From a virus (Duplodnaviria; Heunggongvirae; Uroviricota; Caudoviricetes), in the IMG/VR virus record IMGVR_UViG_2563366923_000005: a stretch of 16,693 bases of DNA, one strand, 5' to 3'. The position numbers and the translations under genes are program-made. The notes beneath the pieces were generated by a model. It did not search any database and was not told where the DNA came from. It saw only the letters and a list, made by a program, of their open reading frames with translations. Shown piece after piece: positions 460-15,786 of the stretch. Positions within the stretch are counted from its first letter, which is position 1. Each line of letters opens with the position of its first letter.

Positions 460-2121
460 TCAAATCCCATTAAATAAAGCCAGTCGCTCTTTGTGACTGT
501 CGCTCATATCGAAAGCAAAATCTTCGTGTTCTGCCTGGAATGTGCCGAACGCCATGAGTGCAGAAACCGCCGGGTCTATCTTGTTGGAGGATTTCTTTTT
601 GTTGGGTTTGATATTGGCGTTGGCGTCGGACTCCATCACCACGTTACCAATCGCCCAAGCCAGAACCGGATCGCCACGATGGCGCACCACCTTGCGGTTA
701 ACAAAAACCTCAAAAGATTTCGCTACCGGACTGAATTTCAGATAGGTTTGCGGGAACGGCTCCACATCGAGGCCGGCCCCCTGTAACTGGGTTCGCAAGT
801 GAGTGGCGTTCCACGTATCAAAGCCCACCAGCCGGATATTGAATGTTTCAGCATCGCGCAGGATATCGTCACGGATGCGGTCATAGTCGATACAGTCGCC
901 GGGGGTGGTTCGTATCCAGCCCGCTTTTACCCACTGGCGATAGATGGCGCGGTTTTTGTTAGCAACGTTAAGTAGCTGCGCTTCGGGCAGATAGTGCCGA
1001 GTAAGAAGCCTGATCTCGCGTTCAAACGGGAAAGCGTAACTCACGCTGGTAATATCGCTGGTTGAGGACAGGTCAAATCCGGCGTAACACTCCATCCCGA
1101 CCAGATCTTCTTCGGCATAATCGAGTGCACAGGCATCCCATGCCCCGGCACCCATCCACGGTGTAGAACCCTGACACCAGATATTGAAACGCTTGGTCAG
1201 CATCTCCACCCATTGCGACGGTATACCCCGCGCTTTTTGGATGGTGGATTCCAGCTTCGCCGCGTCAACGGACACATGCAGGTTAGGGTTGGCCTTGATC
1301 CACATTTCAGGCTGCTCAACCTCGCTTTCGTCGTCCAGCTCGTAGATCAGGACAAACAGCGAATCGTTGCTCTCTTCCCCGGCCAGAATCTGACAACAGT
1401 AGTCGTAATGCTGTTTACAGGCTGAGACAACGTTACTCCCGGCGGTCGTTATGGCGAACAAAATAGCCTCAGGACGTGCGCCCATACCCAGCTCAAGGGC
1501 GGAATAAACGCCGTTATCCGGGTGAAGGTGGTACTCATCGACAATCGCTAGGCTGGGGTTAGTCCCTTCAATGGTGGACGCTTTCGCCGCCAGCGGCTTT
1601 AGCAGGCTGTTGCTCTTCGGGAAAATGACTTTATGCGCCTGAATATTTACGCGCTTTTTCAGCGGTTTTGACAACAGGCACATCTGGCGGGCATCGTCGA
1701 ACACGATTCGGGCCTGATCCCGGCTCACCGCCGCCGTATAGATATCCTGCTGGCCCTTCTCCATTACCAGAAACCAGTTAGCCAGCATGGCGGCCACGGT
1801 GGATTTGGCATTCTTGCGCGGCACCTCAATAAAGGCGCTGCTGTACTTACGGCGGCCTGTCTCTCTGACTTTAAAGCCCAGCAGGTTAGCAAAGGCGAAC
1901 TGCTGCCACGGTTCCAGATCGATTGGCTGGCCCCGAAGCGGGCCTTTGACGTGAGGACAGAGCCGCGAGAACGCAATAAACCGCTCTACGGTCGCCGTAT
2001 CGAACTCATATCGGGGGTCATTCAGGTCTGAAAAGTACCTTTCCACGGCCTGTTTTACGCGCTTACAGGCCGGAATTTCGCCCGTTTTTATCGCATTTGC
2101 GTACTCATTCCAGACGGTCAA
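460..2121 (-). CDS. terL: Phage terminase large subunit
   Basis: 553-aa ORF with a P-loop-like segment (EVPRKNAKST) and typical length. The only possible start is TTG at 2119-2121, since an in-frame stop lies at 2143-2145 with no ATG or GTG between. It is preceded by GGAAGAGGAGGA and overlaps the terS 3' end by 17 nt. Confidence 0.9.
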   Translation of the reverse strand: MTVWNEYANAIKTGEIPACKRVKQAVERYFSDLNDPRYEFDTATVERFIAFSRLCPHVKGPLRGQPIDLEPWQQFAFANLLGFKVRETGRRKYSSAFIEVPRKNAKSTVAAMLANWFLVMEKGQQDIYTAAVSRDQARIVFDDARQMCLLSKPLKKRVNIQAHKVIFPKSNSLLKPLAAKASTIEGTNPSLAIVDEYHLHPDNGVYSALELGMGARPEAILFAITTAGSNVVSACKQHYDYCCQILAGEESNDSLFVLIYELDDESEVEQPEMWIKANPNLHVSVDAAKLESTIQKARGIPSQWVEMLTKRFNIWCQGSTPWMGAGAWDACALDYAEEDLVGMECYAGFDLSSTSDITSVSYAFPFEREIRLLTRHYLPEAQLLNVANKNRAIYRQWVKAGWIRTTPGDCIDYDRIRDDILRDAETFNIRLVGFDTWNATHLRTQLQGAGLDVEPFPQTYLKFSPVAKSFEVFVNRKVVRHRGDPVLAWAIGNVVMESDANANIKPNKKKSSNKIDPAVSALMAFGTFQAEHEDFAFDMSDSHKERLALFNGI

Positions 2122-2461
2122 GCTCGTCCTCCTCTTCCGTTTCTACCGGGTTACGGCGGCGGCTTACCGGATCAAAGCCCAGCAGCGACGACATTTTAAT
2201 CATGATTTTTTCAGCATCGGCCTTTGCACTCAGTGCAGGATTTCGGCTCTCGCCCCCCTGGCTGTTAACAATGCTGAACCCACGGCTGGCAAGGTCTTCC
2301 ACTGCTTTGCGGTACATCGAATAGTTGACGCAAAAAAGCTCAAGGTTGTTCCAGTCGGCGGGTGTCAGATCGCCACGCTCGGCCAGTTGCTTCGCTTTCG
2401 CTTTCCACTGCTGCGCGGCTAACTCATCAAGGTAAGCTGGCGGTTTTGGTGGTCTTGCCAT
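2105..2461 (-). CDS. terS: Phage terminase small subunit (P27-family-like)
   Basis: 118-aa product starting MARPPKPP (ATG at 2459-2461), with a pattern typical of P27-type small terminases (NPALSAKADAEKIM, FDPVSRRR). The ORF-track extension up to 2629 is G-rich and judged spurious. Confidence 0.8.
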   Translation of the reverse strand: MARPPKPPAYLDELAAQQWKAKAKQLAERGDLTPADWNNLELFCVNYSMYRKAVEDLASRGFSIVNSQGGESRNPALSAKADAEKIMIKMSSLLGFDPVSRRRNPVETEEEDELDRLE

Positions 2462-2736
2462 AAAAATTTCTCGTTTCCATCGCGTTTTATTTTCAAAAAA
2501 ATCACCGTGCGTAAAAATTTGAGGGGGCGGGCGGTGCCTGGCACCTTGAGGTTTGTCCTGAAAACCTCCCCCACCCCGTCCATGCGGCCTGTCAGCGGTT
2601 GCGGAAGCATTCCCGCAACTCCCGTTCACGCTCGCTCATACGCTGCACAGGCTGGCGCTCATTGCGTCTGCTTCGCCCCTGCATGAAGCCATCACGGCAG
2701 CGCATCAATGATCGGTACAGATTCACCACGTCTTTC
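2462..2736. other. Candidate cos / packaging-site region between HNH gene and terS
   Basis: 275-bp non-coding gap in the position where HK97-type genomes carry cos. It holds a GC-rich block at 2521-2578 with a perfect palindrome GGTGCC-T-GGCACC (2533-2545) and an inverted repeat GAGGTTT-N6-AAACCTC (2548-2568), flanked by a G-rich tract (2521-2534) and a C-rich tract (2565-2578). Confidence 0.35.
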
Positions 2737-3180
2737 TCATTCATTTCTGCCCTCATACATCCAGTCATTGCGATGGGCTGCACGCTCTTCCTGCTCTCGG
2801 TACAGCCCTGCCTTACGGTTCGCTTTGGTGATGGGGTCTTGCTGCGTGGTCTTCTGGTTATGATGCATCTGGCATAACGGCTGGTGATTCCACTCAGGCC
2901 AGAACAGAACATCATCACCGCCGTCGATAGGGATGATGTGATCGACAATCTTTGCAGGAACGTAGAGGCCCAACTTCTGGCACTCGACACATAGCGGCTG
3001 ACGTTTCAGATACTGAGCGCGGTACTTCTCCCATGATGCTGAGTAACCACGGGCGCGACGGTGGCCGCGTCTGGCATCTTCCGCCCGCCAGGCTTCGCGC
3101 TTGTGCTCATCGCACTTACCAGACTTCACCCGCTTATTGCATCCCGGCTCAGTGCACCGGCGCATTGGTTGCCACGGCAT
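2737..3180 (-). CDS. HNH endonuclease (terminase-associated)
   Basis: 147 aa from ATG at 3178-3180, overlapping the connector stop (ATGA). Cys clusters (CTEPGC, CDEH, CVECQ) and an HNH-like core (LCQMHHNQK). Position between connector and terS is typical of HK97-like packaging modules. Confidence 0.85.
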   Translation of the reverse strand: MPWQPMRRCTEPGCNKRVKSGKCDEHKREAWRAEDARRGHRRARGYSASWEKYRAQYLKRQPLCVECQKLGLYVPAKIVDHIIPIDGGDDVLFWPEWNHQPLCQMHHNQKTTQQDPITKANRKAGLYREQEERAAHRNDWMYEGRNE

Positions 3181-3479
3181 CAGTACACCCCCACATCGCG
3201 ATACACAGACCACAATGCAGAGATAGCAAGGGGGATCTCTTTCGCCTCCACATCACTAATCATCGTGCGGTATTCGTACAGTTGGGAAACGTACATAAGG
3301 CATCCGATCTTGATGGCAGGAGTAAATTCCAGGCCAGCACCGAACCGTTTACCGATATGCTTCTGGCAGACTTCCAGTGACGCTTCGATGTATGCCTGAA
3401 TCATTGCATCTTCATAGGAATCATCGTTATCGATGCGACAGTGAAGTTTTGCCTCATCAAGCCCAATTAGTTCACTCAC
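3180..3479 (-). CDS. gp6-like head-tail connector / DNA packaging protein
   Basis: 99 aa with GTG start at 3477-3479 preceded by GGGAGGG, and an in-frame stop directly upstream. N-terminus LDEAKLHCRIDNDDSYEDAMIQAYIEAS fits the gp6-like connector pattern. Confidence 0.75.
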   Translation of the reverse strand: MSELIGLDEAKLHCRIDNDDSYEDAMIQAYIEASLEVCQKHIGKRFGAGLEFTPAIKIGCLMYVSQLYEYRTMISDVEAKEIPLAISALWSVYRDVGVY

Positions 3480-5368: not shown

Positions 5369-6535
5369 TCAGGAACCGGAACCGGAAAGCTCAAGCACCT
5401 TGATGGCGTTGGAGTCCACCACACCACCGCCTAGGTATTTATCGGTGTGCACCTTGTAGAAACCAGGTTCGGTGATGTTGTCGGGGCGGGTACGCACGCC
5501 AGTGGTGTGATCCACGATGAAGTAACCGCGCTTAAAGTCGCCGACTGCCAGGAACGCTTCACCCGCAGCCGCATCAGGCATGGTTTCCAGGTATTGAACC
5601 GGACGGCCAAGGAGGGTATCGGGAGAGTCAGCGACGAGACGATCACGCCAGATGTAATCCCCGTTGCCGTTTTTCAGCTTTTGCAGCGTAGCGGCAGTGT
5701 TGGAGTTCATCACCCATACGGCATTTTTGCGGTATTTGGCTTTCAGCTTATACAGCAGGTCGATAAGACCATCAGAGGAAACGGCAGCAGCCTCCATCTT
5801 CTCCAGCGTGCCGAACGGACGGGTTTTATCGCTGGTGGCCGCACGCGGATAGGACAGGAACCCTTTGGATTTTTTATCACCGTCGCCGTTCACAAAGTCG
5901 GTTTCTTCGGTAGCAGTGAAGGTGTCGGTAATTTCGGAAGACAGCCAGCCCAGAATATCAACTTCGGAGAAGTCGAGAATTTCCTGAGTGGTTTTCGGGT
6001 AGGCGTAGATCGGGTTGAGTTTGATATCAACGCGCTCCATCTTCGGTGTGCTGGTTTCGGTACGCGCTTCGCCTTCGGTGCCGCGCTTAACGGTAGTGCC
6101 GCCCACTGACACCAGCTTCTGGTATTCGTTGGTTTTGGTGGTCTTCACCGTGGCGATGGAGCGCATAACGCTGTCATCCTGCAACTGGCGCATGATCTCT
6201 TTGTCCAGCTCAGGGATAACGGTATAGCCGCCGTCAGCCTGCACTAACGTGGAGAGAGAGCGGGTATCGCCGGTCATGATGTAGTGGCGCAGCTCATCGT
6301 TGCTTACACCTTTACCTTCAACAGAAGTACCAGGCAAATTGCGCTGATCGTCGGCGACGGCCTCAAGGCGGGTAATTTCAACTTCAAGCGCATCAGCCTG
6401 GGCGCGGAGTTCGTCGAACTGCTTTCCCTCTTCATCGTTCAGGCTTCGCTTTTCGCTGTCAGCTTTTTCCAGCATGGAACGCATCTGGGTTTTGAGTGCG
6501 GTTTTCTGCTGGCGTAATTCAAGTAATTTCTTCAT
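5369..6535 (-). CDS. Major capsid protein (HK97 fold) with N-terminal delta (scaffold-like) domain
   Basis: 388 aa from ATG at 6533-6535 (MKKLLELRQQK). The N-terminal ~100 aa are coiled-coil rich, like an HK97 delta domain, followed by a capsid-like body. The track extension to 6652 is judged spurious. Confidence 0.9.
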   Translation of the reverse strand: MKKLLELRQQKTALKTQMRSMLEKADSEKRSLNDEEGKQFDELRAQADALEVEITRLEAVADDQRNLPGTSVEGKGVSNDELRHYIMTGDTRSLSTLVQADGGYTVIPELDKEIMRQLQDDSVMRSIATVKTTKTNEYQKLVSVGGTTVKRGTEGEARTETSTPKMERVDIKLNPIYAYPKTTQEILDFSEVDILGWLSSEITDTFTATEETDFVNGDGDKKSKGFLSYPRAATSDKTRPFGTLEKMEAAAVSSDGLIDLLYKLKAKYRKNAVWVMNSNTAATLQKLKNGNGDYIWRDRLVADSPDTLLGRPVQYLETMPDAAAGEAFLAVGDFKRGYFIVDHTTGVRTRPDNITEPGFYKVHTDKYLGGGVVDSNAIKVLELSGSGS

Positions 6536-6563
6536 GGAGTGGTTTCCGTAACAATTAATGTTG

Positions 6564-6656
6564 AGACGTGAAACCTGCGCTTGGAGGGATGTCCACCTGG
6601 AAAGGAAACCGTCGCAGAACGGGAAAAAACCAGGTGGACAGTGGCGGCTCACGTCT
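6564..6656. promoter_or_regulatory. Nested inverted repeats upstream of the capsid gene
   Basis: Perfect 10-bp inverted repeat GTCCACCTGG (6591-6600) / CCAGGTGGAC (6630-6639) around a 29-nt A-rich spacer, nested inside a 7-bp inverted repeat AGACGTG (6564-6570) / CACGTCT (6650-6656). It lies 27-124 nt upstream of the capsid ATG on the minus strand. Confidence 0.35.
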
Positions 6657-6797
6657 GAGTGCCACTCTTCAAGATATACATAATAATCAATGAGTAAACA
6701 GCTCTATGTTGTCGCAAACAGCAGCGAAAACAGGAGAACAAATAATTTACAAAGTTTGATAATATGAACGGGAAAAAAACCACTTCTGGGGGATTTT

Positions 6798-7310
6798 ATG
6801 GACTTCGATTTTGATGATATGGCATACCCGGATATTTTTTTAATTTCCGGCGAGGAGTTTAAAGGAAGCCGGAACACAGGAAAAAATCAGGTAGATATCC
6901 CGTTTACTGACGAACCGCAAATTGAATTGGGCGATATTCTGATTCAGAAGATTGGAAGCCGTGAGTTAAGCCTTAAAGTTGTCGATCTTTCAATATCAAA
7001 GAATGGAACGCTGAACGTGGGTACAACGCATCCTCACTTACTGACGTTATCCGTAGAGAATCTTTCTTCCAACGCACACAGGACAGCAAAGAGTATGAAT
7101 ACTTTTAATATTGGCTCCGTCAGTGGTGAGCAAGTTCAAATAGGTGAAAGTAATCATATGCTGGTGAATATCAGTATTACTGAACTTGTCGAGAAAGTGG
7201 CTAACTCTGGCGATCCACAGGCTAAATCAATGTTGAAACAGTTACTGGAAAATAGCACCGTTGCCAGTATCGTTGGCGCTGGCGCTTCTGCGCTATTAGG
7301 TCTGCTTTAA
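6798..7310 (+). CDS. Hypothetical protein with C-terminal hydrophobic Gly/Ala-rich tail; accessory gene on the opposite strand
   Basis: 170-aa ORF with GGGGGA 4 nt before the ATG. C-terminus TVASIVGAGASALLGLL looks like a single tail anchor or glycine-zipper segment. About 43% GC in a sampled 60 nt. Only sizeable plus-strand gene inside the island besides the RHH gene. Confidence 0.6.
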   Translation: MDFDFDDMAYPDIFLISGEEFKGSRNTGKNQVDIPFTDEPQIELGDILIQKIGSRELSLKVVDLSISKNGTLNVGTTHPHLLTLSVENLSSNAHRTAKSMNTFNIGSVSGEQVQIGESNHMLVNISITELVEKVANSGDPQAKSMLKQLLENSTVASIVGAGASALLGLL

Positions 7311-7315
7311 AATAT

Positions 7316-7335
7316 GGCCTGGGAAAAACCAGGCC
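7316..7335. terminator. Bidirectional intrinsic terminator between convergent accessory genes
   Basis: GGCCTGG-GAAAAA-CCAGGCC hairpin with TTT downstream on plus and an A-rich stretch upstream. A second 8-bp hairpin GGCTGGAT / ATCCAGCC (7349-7375) spans the stop codon of the minus-strand gene. Confidence 0.6.
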
Positions 7336-7357: not shown

Positions 7358-7693
7358 TTATTCTTTATCCAGCCCCCACTGATAGAAAGCCCAGCTTGCC
7401 GTTGATTGTGCGCTATGGATAGCGTTCTCAAGGCCAGAGGTTGGGTACGACAAATCAGCCGCCATCCTCTGTAGAAGATCGAGGTAAGCGCTGGCGTCTT
7501 TCGACAACTCTTGCTCCCCTTCTTCCAGCCCAGACTGGTACGATTCCAGATCAAGCTTTTCAGAAGTGACAAACGCACTCAGAGCCAGAAAATCCGTCAC
7601 TGTAATCTCATCTTTATTTGAAAGCTCATCAACGGCGCTGTAGAGAAACTTAAGATCGCTCATATGCCCGTTATCTTTGCCAATCAGTTTCAT
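7358..7693 (-). CDS. Hypothetical acidic protein (accessory / possible interference or immunity function)
   Basis: 111-aa ORF with AGAGGT 6 nt upstream of the ATG at 7691-7693. Acidic and probably helical, with no recognisable catalytic motif. Lies immediately downstream of the iteron origin. Confidence 0.6.
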   Translation of the reverse strand: MKLIGKDNGHMSDLKFLYSAVDELSNKDEITVTDFLALSAFVTSEKLDLESYQSGLEEGEQELSKDASAYLDLLQRMAADLSYPTSGLENAIHSAQSTASWAFYQWGLDKE

Positions 7694-7732: not shown

Positions 7733-8011
7733 TGTTGGTTCAGTTAGTTCAGTTGGTTCAATTTGTAAAGATGATTGTTTTATAATGATTATTTCCCGTT
7801 GAGTGAACCAACAAAGCCCCGATTTGAACCAACATTGGGTATTTTCATGTTGGTTCAGTCCATGAGGTTCTAAAATGTTGGTTCAAACTGCCCGTTTGTT
7901 GGTTCAAAACTGCTATTTGTTGGTTCAGTGTTGGTTCATTTTTTGACATTAAACCCATATAAAACAGCCACATGAACATAACCCATAGACACTGAACCAA
8001 CTGAACCAACA
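7733..8011. repeat. Iteron array / replication origin (ori)
   Basis: About 10 copies of TGTTGGTTCA or its reverse complement TGAACCAACA at 7733, 7752, 7804, 7824, 7849, 7876, 7897, 7918, 7929 and 8002, with AT-rich spacers, directly downstream of the replication gene. Confidence 0.8.
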
Positions 8012-12018: not shown

Positions 12019-12798
12019 TTATTCAGCGTCAGCATTCGGCACCTCCGGCAATACGCCACCAGCGATCAGTTTCTTCGTTAACCACTGCTCCCCCTTCCCC
12101 GTCAGCATCGTTGTGAATGAGGCTCTTACTTCGCCATTCGTTTCATACGTTCCCTGGCGAACGGCAAAATAACCGCTATCGATATAACGCTGCATAGGCA
12201 GGTTGTGGCGCTGGCCACCGTTGATGAGAATCCCCTGTTGCCTCATCCAGCCGAATAATTTGAAGGGGCCAAGCCCTACGGCTTTGGCATAGTTGGAAAT
12301 GGAAATACCCTTGCTGATCTCCGCAACGCGATCAGCGAAATCAACTTTTGGCGCAGCGGCCACCAGCCGGTTTTCAAGTTCGCTTGCCTTTTCGGCCAGA
12401 TCAGCAGCAAGGCGCAGGGCTTCCGGTAACGTCTGGGGGATATTAGCGGCGGCTTTTGCCTGGCGTTCGCAGTTGATGAAGTAGCGGCGCACCTCCCGCC
12501 CTTTTTCGTTGCGCTCAACCATTGCCAGCTCTTTACCCATGTCGATGGTGATCAGGTAATCATGTGCAATTTGTTGGCGATATTTTGCGCTCCCCGAAAC
12601 GGGGGCGCTCAAATTTTCAACCACCGTAAAATCTACACCAGCAGTAAAACCATACTGGCTGATACGCCCCTTAATCCATGTGGTGAAATCACGCCCAACG
12701 CCGAGAAACTCATGGAGTTTTTTTGCACTGACCAGCGATACCGTCACGCCGCCAATATTTCCGGGGTTAACCGGAACCAACTCATTTAATTTTTGCAT
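12019..12798 (-). CDS. Phage antirepressor (AntA N-terminal domain + KilAC C-terminal domain)
   Basis: 259 aa from ATG at 12796-12798. HDYLITIDMGKELAMVERNEKGREVRRYFINCERQ matches the AntA signature; C-terminal NLPMQRYIDSGYFAVRQGTYETNGEVRASFTTMLTGKGEQWLTKKL matches the KilAC/ANT pattern. Confidence 0.85.
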   Translation of the reverse strand: MQKLNELVPVNPGNIGGVTVSLVSAKKLHEFLGVGRDFTTWIKGRISQYGFTAGVDFTVVENLSAPVSGSAKYRQQIAHDYLITIDMGKELAMVERNEKGREVRRYFINCERQAKAAANIPQTLPEALRLAADLAEKASELENRLVAAAPKVDFADRVAEISKGISISNYAKAVGLGPFKLFGWMRQQGILINGGQRHNLPMQRYIDSGYFAVRQGTYETNGEVRASFTTMLTGKGEQWLTKKLIAGGVLPEVPNADAE

Positions 12799-13274: not shown

Positions 13275-14216
13275 TTAAAACTTAAAGTGCCTACTAATGT
13301 ATGAGGTAATTGTGTCAACGCTCTTGACCGGGCATTGTCCGTCAGGAAATAAGTGCACTCTGTCGGAAAGTTCTCTGGCCCATGCTGAGAAATTGTAGCT
13401 CCCATCTTTTTTCAAGCACTTTTCATTGAAAATATCAGAATTTGTTTCTTTGAATTTTATTGCAGCACTTAAAATTAATAGTTCATTTCGTGCATGTTTT
13501 TCTTTTGCACTTTCTGAGCGTTTATTAATACTATTTTTTGAATCAGAGTCTAAATCAGGTCGTTCAATATCATTGAGCATTGGCAGCTTATCGAAATCAA
13601 GGCCGCTTTCCATAAGCCGTTTAATATCATAATTAGTAACCCATAAATCATCATACCCGGCTTCAAACTCATAAGGGTCGAAATTAAACCTCTTGCCATT
13701 AGCCTGATCGATAAAAGGTTGGGCTGGCAGAATCTGAATTACTGGAGTTTCACCGCCTGTGAGGCACGGGAAAAATCCGGGGAAAAAATCCTTCACAGGT
13801 AAAGATGACTCAAACTGATCGGGCATTACCCGCCACAGACCTAATGCAAAGCCATATCCGACAAGGAACCCTTTACTTTCTTGTTCCGTAAAGATGTCTG
13901 AACCAGATAATAGTTTATCAGGTTCAAAATAACGGCCATTAGTAAATTCAATAAAAGAGTGATTCGTTATCGCGCGGGTTTGCCCTGACATAGAATTAAA
14001 AGTACGAGGAAAATATAGTGATGAATACCAATCCTTTACATCATTAAAATCTTCACGAAGAAGGATTCGGCAGTGAAACCTTTTCAGCATCATGCTTATT
14101 TCGATTTTATTTTCAATAGCAAGGTTGATCAAATCTGACGGTTCAACCCCCAGAAATGATGCACCTCTGGACAATCTACAATATGAAAATGGAATCTTTA
14201 TTTCTTTTTCTGCCAT
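13275..14216 (-). CDS. Hypothetical protein, AT-rich cargo gene between int and alpA (candidate defence / accessory function)
   Basis: 313-aa ORF with GAGGG RBS. 27% GC in a sampled 60 nt, far below the head genes. No family recognised by eye. Contains YDDLWVTNYDIK, a D-x8-D-x-K arrangement weakly reminiscent of a PD-(D/E)xK core. Confidence 0.65.
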   Translation of the reverse strand: MAEKEIKIPFSYCRLSRGASFLGVEPSDLINLAIENKIEISMMLKRFHCRILLREDFNDVKDWYSSLYFPRTFNSMSGQTRAITNHSFIEFTNGRYFEPDKLLSGSDIFTEQESKGFLVGYGFALGLWRVMPDQFESSLPVKDFFPGFFPCLTGGETPVIQILPAQPFIDQANGKRFNFDPYEFEAGYDDLWVTNYDIKRLMESGLDFDKLPMLNDIERPDLDSDSKNSINKRSESAKEKHARNELLILSAAIKFKETNSDIFNEKCLKKDGSYNFSAWARELSDRVHLFPDGQCPVKSVDTITSYISRHFKF

Positions 14217-14308
14217 AACGCTACCCTCAACGCCCCTAATTAACTTGCGAGCCAGGCGGGTAGGGTTTCCCGCTTTTCGGTTGGCCGACCTAGACTCGCA
14301 AGACCAGT

Positions 14309-15723: not shown

Positions 15724-15750
15724 TTCAGGTTAGCTAAATGCTTGATTAAA

Positions 15751-15786
15751 AAGGCGCTACTCGGCATGGGGAAGCGCCTTTTTTAT
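15751..15786. terminator. Bidirectional intrinsic terminator (probably the native fis operon terminator)
   Basis: AAGGCGCT / AGCGCCTT 8-bp stem (15751-15758 and 15773-15780) with a 14-nt loop, A-run upstream and a T-run of 6 downstream. Confidence 0.6.

Follow-up and report, generated by a model that had tools for sequence, protein, structure and literature searches.

The window, a stretch of 16,693 nucleotides recorded in IMG/VR as IMGVR_UViG_2563366923_000005 (Caudoviricetes), is a capsid-forming phage-inducible chromosomal island (cf-PICI), and the DNA immediately upstream of its capsid gene encodes a conserved, structured leader RNA. Islands of this kind are satellites that make their own capsids and borrow only the tails of helper phages. 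The interpretation favoured here, with a probability of approximately 55%, is that the leader is a cis-acting, attenuator-like RNA switch that controls the capsid operon of the island: three of its helices share bases and are mutually exclusive, and one of them would cover the ribosome-binding site of the first gene. The open reading frame (ORF) that lies 3' of the leader, on the minus strand, encodes an HK97-type major capsid protein (Pfam Phage_capsid PF05065, E 5e-68).

Nested inverted repeats upstream of the capsid gene

A repeat search of the window finds a perfect inverted repeat of 11 nt at 6590-6600 and 6630-6640 (TGTCCACCTGG / CCAGGTGGACA), with arms 29 nt apart, enclosed by a perfect outer inverted repeat of 8 nt at 6564-6571 and 6649-6656 (AGACGTGA / TCACGTCT). 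Both repeats are located 29-121 nt upstream of the capsid ATG, which occupies positions 6535-6533 on the minus strand. The nested perfect repeats reported in an earlier sequence-only reading are thus real, at 11 and 8 bp instead of the 10 and 7 bp claimed, and the position that it gave them, 27-124 nt before the ATG, is borne out. The full element is larger than first reported, extending from approximately 6666 to 6541, with a promoter region that reaches up to 6753.

The further claim that the arrangement is too elaborate to be chance does not hold on the window alone. Compared with 200 dinucleotide shuffles, the window contains six perfect inverted repeats of at least 10 bp with spacers of no more than 60 nt (mean of 0.73 in the shuffles), and an 11-bp inverted repeat turns up in 16.5% of the shuffled windows; by themselves, the repeats exceed the chance expectation weakly. 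The 141-nt leader on the capsid strand folds to -51.7 kcal/mol (z = -5.4), and none of 200 shuffles folds as well. Chance is excluded for the leader because of conservation and covariation across the 100 leaders described below. Inverted repeats are also frequent in packaging (cos) sites and replication origins, but LR881103, the genome record of a packaged cf-PICI, starts 22 nt ahead of terS and stops past a small ORF downstream of the HNH gene, with the leader mid-record at 12136-12292, and the origin-like repeats of the window cluster at 7804-7990 instead. The repeats before the capsid gene are almost certainly neither a cos site nor an origin nor an accident of composition. Because LR881103 starts 22 nt before terS, the cos site is placed near terS, as in HK97-type phages, and in the window it is probably the G-rich gap between the HNH gene and terS, at approximately 2630-2740 on the minus strand.

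Conservation of the leader among capsid-forming islands

Approximately 165 nt before the capsid gene are kept in eight relatives from E. coli that have differing neighbour genes, and in these relatives the inner repeat differs in sequence, with both arms changing in step. Capsid relatives were also sought in one genome per species of GTDB, which returned 80 loci. Just 5' of the inner repeat lies a 25-nt sequence, GTGGCACTCAGACGTGAGCCGCCAC, which is the core of the first hairpin of the leader (H1). This core is identical before capsid genes of at least 14 genera (Pluralibacter, Kosakonia, Enterobacter, Citrobacter, Kluyvera, Rahnella, Pantoea, Pectobacterium, Erwinia, Winslowiella, Rosenbergiella, Serratia, Providencia and Proteus), with capsid identity down to approximately 70%, and core variants in Serratia, Leclercia and Xenorhabdus show paired changes.

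A scan for the core finds it in at least 120 IMG/VR contigs, mostly of 14-18 kb. The capsid ORF (MKKL[LI]E...) starts 120-146 nt after the core in all of these contigs except five, in which the locus has too little downstream sequence, and the larger contigs keep the cf-PICI gene order from capsid to terL. Because the capsid ORF follows the core and the larger contigs keep this gene order, the leader is judged to be tied to the capsid module of cf-PICIs. No bona fide phage was found to carry it in the phage collections, where the matches are only cf-PICI-like records and weak chance matches, and the plasmid matches look like excised or inserted islands.

Pairing and covariation in hairpin 1 and stem 2

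A covariance model was built from the leader, and 100 distinct leaders from many genera of Enterobacterales were aligned; the pairing frequencies given here and in the following section refer to this alignment. RNAalifold, applied to 33 leaders, predicts H1 and a second stem (S2), with compensatory changes in 12 of 19 pairs. H1 (6640-6666, minus strand; AGUGGC-A-CUCA-GACG-UGAG-CC-GCCACU) lies at the predicted mRNA start or up to approximately 2 nt from it. H1 occurs only once in the window, and its 25-nt core hardly varies. It is 100% paired, and three of its nine pairs show compensatory changes (GUGAC/GUCAC, AUGGC/GCCAU and CUCC/GGAG). S2 (6590-6640, minus strand), which is the inner repeat, consists of 10-11 bp that close a variable loop of 29 nt, which holds a small hairpin (CCGUUCUGCGACGG) in the window's lineage. 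It is 95.6% paired with 40 distinct arm combinations, and nine of its ten pairs are compensatory. The pairing values of H1 and S2 are reached by none of 500 shuffles, and sliding of the partner columns reduces pairing to approximately 40%. Judged from the alignment, the pairings of the leader are under selection. Between S2 and the third hairpin lies a pyrimidine-rich single-stranded tract, UCCCUCC (6583-6589, minus strand), of which the C/U composition is conserved across the 100 leaders and the sequence is not.

The strand on which the element functions can be deduced from its mismatches. Since S2 contains 31 G.U pairs versus 8 A.C pairs, and since the outer helix contains a G.U pair in 100 of 100 leaders, the functional strand is the capsid-sense RNA. 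The sequence-only reading had proposed, among other functions, that the repeats are a DNA operator, and AlpA, another regulator of the island or a late activator of a helper phage would be the protein bound. Palindromes close to a promoter are classic operators, and the symmetric changes in H1 (GTGAC...GTCAC, ATGGC...GCCAT) would suit a dimer on two half-sites as well as a hairpin. However, the inner repeat has 40 sequences that keep complementarity, with a loop of varying length, instead of a conserved sequence at a fixed position; the distance between the outer arms varies with the S2 loop, as seen in the spacing of 120-146 nt from the H1 start to the capsid ORF; the excess of G.U over A.C pairs points to RNA; the repeats lie downstream of the predicted transcription start, whereas the AlpA site of P. 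aeruginosa sits between -35 and -10 (PMC7969949); and a better operator-like array, of phased TTGT direct repeats, lies upstream. An operator at these repeats is considered highly improbable. The proposal of an attenuator or other RNA structure is strengthened by the S2 covariation, by the excess of G.U pairs, by the exclusive pairings and by the terminator competition in the O157-type leader, both described below, and a role of the repeats in RNA processing is possible.

The leader does not appear to be translated. It has no conserved ORF. Two reading frames run across the element, one an extension of the capsid ORF in frame from a GTG (5369-6652), the other a plus-strand ORF of 35 codons, and both were rejected as coding because leader lengths vary by non-multiples of three and the S2 loop is hypervariable.

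The S2 loop of the window also contains one copy of an exact 13-nt direct repeat (GAACGGGAAAAAA, plus strand) at 6617-6629. The other copy, at 6766-6778, is located 20 nt before the start of the divergent ORF170 and is present only in loci that have the ORF170 cassette; by way of this repeat, the RNA of the ORF170 5' untranslated region (UTR) would be complementary to the loop of the capsid leader.

Mutually exclusive helices before the start codon

The outer repeat forms a long-range helix in the RNA. Its 5' strand (6649-6656, minus strand; AGACGUGA) takes in the final base of the 5' arm of the H1 apical stem, then the GACG loop, then the 3' arm of that stem. Its 3' strand (6564-6571, minus strand; UCACGUCU) includes GGTTTCACGTC, which shows little or no variation, and shares bases with the 5' arm of a third hairpin (HP3). 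Pairing in the outer helix reaches 100% over its 7-bp core and 97.4% over all nine pairs counted. HP3 (6541-6575, minus strand; GGUUUC.ACG..CAA / UUG..ACGGAAACC) ends 5 nt before the capsid AUG at 6535, folds alone to -10.7 kcal/mol, and is 93.9% paired with nearly invariant arms. It is part of the minimum-free-energy fold, in which its 3' arm pairs the only Shine-Dalgarno-like bases, the GGA in ACGGAAACC.

The apical stem of H1, the outer helix and HP3 have bases in common, and because of these shared nucleotides the outer helix cannot coexist with either the H1 apex or HP3. Competition of this kind predicts that a base in the shared strand should remain complementary to two partners, and position 27 does so: in six leaders of Serratia and Leclercia types, the pair U27-A151 of the outer helix is replaced by G-C, and G27 is compensated within H1 as well, by a change of A22 to C.

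The minimum-free-energy state includes H1 and HP3 in 99 of the 100 leaders, and S2 too, and this state invites an explanation without switching, in which the leader is a static 5' UTR: the 5'-terminal H1 would shield the capsid mRNA from decay by RppH and RNase E, and S2 might be a processing site. The ompA mRNA is guarded against 5'-end-dependent decay by such a 5' stem-loop. A shielding function fits the start of H1 approximately 2 nt from the predicted start of transcription, and it fits S2 as a long conserved helix of which the sequence is free. A protective hairpin, however, needs neither an invariant 25-nt sequence nor an invariant GACG loop, and a static leader accounts neither for the conservation of the distal complement GGUUUCACGUC and the three-way covariation by which it is linked to H1 nor for the terminator-competing layout of the O157-type homolog. 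The static explanation is therefore considered unlikely.

Leaders of other classes

The capsid gene of the O157:H7-type islands (EcCIEDL933 type) has approximately 67% DNA identity to that of the window, and its leader is found by the covariance model with 20.3 bits (E = 1.6e-5). H1 of this leader has the same layout and the same GACG loop (GUGG..CCAG-GACG-CUGG..CCAC), and S2 has arms of 17 nt. The outer repeat, CCAGGACGC / GCGUCCUGG (the 3' strand also given as GCGTCCTGG), is perfect over 9 bp with 108 nt between the arms, and its 3' strand shares bases with the 5' arm of a hairpin, GUCCUGGAGUU / AACCCCAGGAC (the 5' arm also given as GTCCTGGAGTT). This hairpin resembles an intrinsic terminator, with arms of 11 nt, a loop of 8 nt and a tail of U7-8, and the capsid AUG follows directly. 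The 5' strand of the outer helix recurs in the 3' arm of this hairpin (CCAGGAC), which also holds the Shine-Dalgarno-like AGGA. The outer helix of the O157-type leader would consequently serve as both antiterminator and anti-sequestor, and the H1 apex as anti-antiterminator.

A third class of leaders, in Xenorhabdus and Photorhabdus, is not detected by the covariance model. In it, a central hairpin and a pyrimidine tract (UUCCCC after the central hairpin in class-b leaders of Xenorhabdus) are enclosed by a long-range helix, and this helix competes with a hairpin at the Shine-Dalgarno sequence. The Xenorhabdus class is non-homologous and offers an analogy, with the same kind of nested competing pairings. 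Genomes of Xenorhabdus hold many copies of the capsid module with three leader types, and at one locus of Xenorhabdus kozodoii (1489-3364) a capsid gene with a short leader is followed approximately 580 nt on by a structured class-1 leader. A search of IMG/VR with a loosened H1 pattern for intermediate classes returned only the O157 class and random matches in coding sequences.

The proposed switch and the evidence against it

In the proposed switch, the leader would be transcribed on the minus strand from a weak sigma-70-type promoter, and H1, S2, the pyrimidine tract and HP3 would emerge in that order. By default, H1 would form first, being transcribed first, and would keep the 5' outer strand occupied; HP3, replaced by the terminator in the O157 class, would form next, the weak ribosome-binding site would be masked, and expression of the capsid gene would be low. 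The alternative, presumably the "on" state, would begin with opening of the H1 apex, upon which the outer helix would close around S2, with S2 as the scaffold that draws the two distant outer strands together, so that HP3 is blocked and the ribosome-binding site exposed. The change of state might be brought about by a trans-acting factor that recognises the invariant H1, or by the kinetics of co-transcriptional folding.

The near-total invariance of H1, loop and internal-loop bases included, suggests specific recognition by something. It may be, as a tentative extension on which the odds are unfavourable, that H1 is the receptor for a trans signal that opens it, such as a host or island protein, a small RNA, a tRNA or a metabolite, in which case the leader would represent a new class of sensing riboregulator.

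Several observations weigh against a switch. Covariation of the outer helix in the class of the window amounts to one position in six sequences, from one or two lineages or events. HP3 has no compensatory changes, its arms being invariant, so its pairing is neither supported nor refuted by the alignment, and its conservation could merely reflect the ribosome-binding site. The terminator logic applies only to a distant homolog with little sequence diversity: HP3 of the window is followed by ACUCCAUG, which contains no U-tract and so does not provide the tail of an intrinsic terminator. Forcing the outer helix to form carries a predicted penalty of 7.8 +/- 2.2 kcal/mol if pseudoknots are disallowed, and the helix needs either help or a pseudoknot; a pseudoknot that keeps the basal stem of H1 would be expected to lower this cost. 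The start site is a prediction only, and a consensus scan missed the promoter (score of 8/12). Many relatives in Xenorhabdus and Photorhabdus, a fourth class, have a short, A-rich, unstructured leader before similar capsid genes, and the element is thus not indispensable. No ligand, protein or RNA partner was found for H1: a duplex scan of both strands of the window against H1 returned only self-antisense and noise, and inspection of the int-alpA RNA motif of the island revealed no convincing complementarity to H1. Finally, overexpression of AlpA alone yields EcCIEDL933 capsids (10.1101/2025.02.11.637232), and therefore the trigger must come from the island or the host, not from the helper phage.

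Predicted promoter and upstream TTGT array

The operon is insulated from the replication genes by the divergent ORF at 6798-7310 and by a bidirectional terminator-like hairpin at 7316-7335 (GGCCTGG...CCAGGCC), located between the convergent ORF170 (plus strand) and a 111-aa ORF (minus strand); for this reason its promoter must lie within 6536-6797. A weak sigma-70 promoter is predicted on the minus strand at 6671-6698, with a -35 element TTTACT (6698-6693), a spacer of 16 nt and a -10 element TATCTT (6676-6671), and transcription would start at 6663-6666, no more than 2 nt from where H1 begins. Among the 100 leaders, the -10 hexamer is conserved as T100 A100 T93 N T98 T100 with its fourth position free, and this TATNTT ends 5 nt before H1, the five intervening bases being variable. 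A sigma-54 promoter was considered on account of TGGCAC in H1 and rejected, there being no GC at -12 and the GG being broken in the Serratia variant GTGACAC.

Farther upstream (6715-6753, minus strand) is an array consisting of TTTGTAAATTATTTGTTC and further TGTT repeats, in all three or four direct repeats, TTGTTC repeats among them, phased at approximately 10-11 bp. The TTTGTAAATTATTTGTTC motif does not vary among the E. coli relatives, occurs only once in the window and is present in the O157-type leader too, and in all three leader classes seen among the GTDB species loci, Xenorhabdus included, TTGTAAAT is located 66-67 nt before the block formed by TTTTCATG and the -10 element. The array is judged the most operator-like DNA of the region, and it is a candidate site for an activator, possibly the excisionase-family protein AlpA. 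At many loci, a hairpin and T-run 20 nt upstream of the -10 element could be mistaken for a leader terminator of a promoter at TTGTAAAT; this candidate was rejected, being absent from the window and placed differently in the O157 class, and the hairpin and T-run are probably the terminator of the variable upstream cassette.

Relation to known regulatory RNAs

Rfam 15 contains no match with E <= 10 to positions 6400-6900 of the window, and none with E <= 1 to four loci that cover all leader classes; within the whole window, the int-alpA RNA motif is the sole Rfam match. The leader is not described in the published literature on cf-PICI regulation and EcCIEDL933 transcripts that was searched, nor does the cf-PICI literature searched address control of the packaging operon. 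From these comparisons, the capsid leader appears to be a new RNA family within a known kind of mechanism.

The logic of the trp leader and of ON-type platforms such as pbuE is well established. Like the trp leader (1:2 / 2:3 / 3:4) and the pbuE adenine riboswitch, the capsid leader has three overlapping pairings: one strand of a long-range helix is tied up in a 5' hairpin, and the helix itself is in competition with a 3' hairpin just before the gene. U7-8 follows this 3' hairpin in the O157-type homolog. It differs from them in that no leader peptide, ligand pocket or known sensor was found, in that the candidate sensing hairpin is at the extreme 5' end, and in that the 3' hairpin of the window has no U-tract and covers the ribosome-binding site.

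The put RNAs of phage HK022, which are cis-acting antiterminators, are likewise related to phages, lie close to a promoter and measure 70-100 nt, with two stem-loops and no known dedicated protein (PMC9378689), and by analogy H1 and S2 might bind RNA polymerase and make it resist pausing and termination along the packaging operon of approximately 6 kb. The two stem-loops of the leader are adjacent, with no spacer, at the predicted +1, as in HK022 putL (PMC9378689), and the invariance of H1 across genera fits contact with a conserved host machine such as RNA polymerase. Nevertheless, the covariance model, run with filters off on the whole HK022 genome, finds no similarity (best score of 8 bits, E = 0.54, in unstructured flanks only); no convincing intrinsic terminators are predicted within the operon; short-leader relatives have similar operons without the element; and the long-range helix that the capsid leader adds, with its competition against the ribosome-binding-site or terminator hairpin, would not be accounted for by such binding. 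A processive antiterminator of the put type is very unlikely.

Antitermination by AlpA or by lambda Q (PMC7969949, PMC9371919) resembles the present system in that the island encodes a protein of the AlpA family, and in that, as at alpB, a terminator-like hairpin separates promoter and first gene in the O157-type leader. The AlpA-binding element of P. aeruginosa is DNA between -35 and -10 with the motif GGGACG-N5-GGTA, accompanied by a downstream terminator (PMC7969949), whereas no element similar to GGGACG-N5-GGTA is seen at the capsid leader, its repeats are RNA helices downstream of the start, and the window has no U-tract terminator. The int-alpA RNA (RF02996) is also a conserved structured RNA, with function unassigned, from the same kind of island, but it has another locus, another sequence and another structure.

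The island and its other features

The window is 100% identical to an island that adjoins fis in E. coli KCJ3K291; E. coli KFu015 is another strain with this island. In the RefSeq annotation, the genes of that island are, in order, those for an integrase, an AlpA-family regulator, an antirepressor, an Icd-like protein and a DUF927 primase, followed by those for the capsid protein, protease, portal, closure/connector proteins, HNH protein, TerS (P27 family) and TerL. Genes for tails and lysis are absent according to RefSeq annotation, Pfam and PHROGs. The AlpA-family protein of the island matches PF05930, and AlpA is the master inducer of PICIs (10.1101/2022.09.08.507074). The integrase, alpA, primase and packaging genes, the size of approximately 15 kb and the dedicated att site agree with the gene layout by which cf-PICIs have been defined (10.1101/2022.09.08.507074, 10.1101/2025.02.11.637232), and the window is therefore a cf-PICI.

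Three accessory ORFs, at 6798-7310 (plus strand), 7358-7693 (minus strand) and 13275-14216 (minus strand), have no Pfam match above curated cut-offs and match only PHROGs of unknown function (phrog_5789, 7232 and 7144). The slot between primase and capsid genes holds varied cassettes in the relatives, for example ProQ/FinO, PerC, SSB and DUF3775 proteins; immune systems are expected in this region by one paper on cf-PICIs (10.1101/2025.02.11.637232). The gap after the DUF927 primase gene contains the cluster at 7804-7990, four perfect inverted repeats of at least 10 bp, which is probably the replication origin of the island. Another perfect inverted repeat of 10 bp, with a 16-nt spacer, is located at 15748-15783, between the integrase gene and a flanking methyltransferase-like ORF, and is possibly related to att or to a terminator.

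The int-alpA RNA motif (Rfam RF02996) is found at 14233-14300 on the minus strand, between the integrase gene and a 313-aa ORF, with 63.6 bits versus a gathering score of 35.8, and is the second conserved structured RNA of the island. In two IMG/VR contigs (48 and 83 kb), the integrase gene of the island adjoins a second, distant terL/HNH pair (33-38% identity), which suggests that these contigs are islands inserted beside or within another phage-like element.

Significance for capsid-forming islands

The leader is a widespread RNA with strong covariation support, absent from Rfam and placed where control of the packaging operon must act. Even if it is no more than a stabilising 5' structure, it remains useful as a marker of the capsid module. 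If the leader is a switch, it would be a new family among the few cis-acting regulatory RNAs known from phage-like elements of Enterobacterales, and it would provide a handle on the timing of capsid synthesis by the satellite, on the signal that is sensed, and on the reason why leader types are interchangeable among islands. If H1 is in addition a sensor, its sensing would license capsid synthesis only at the right moment of the life cycle, by anti-sequestration in the class of the window and by antitermination in the O157/EDL933 class, and the leaders of Xenorhabdus would be convergent sensors of other signals.

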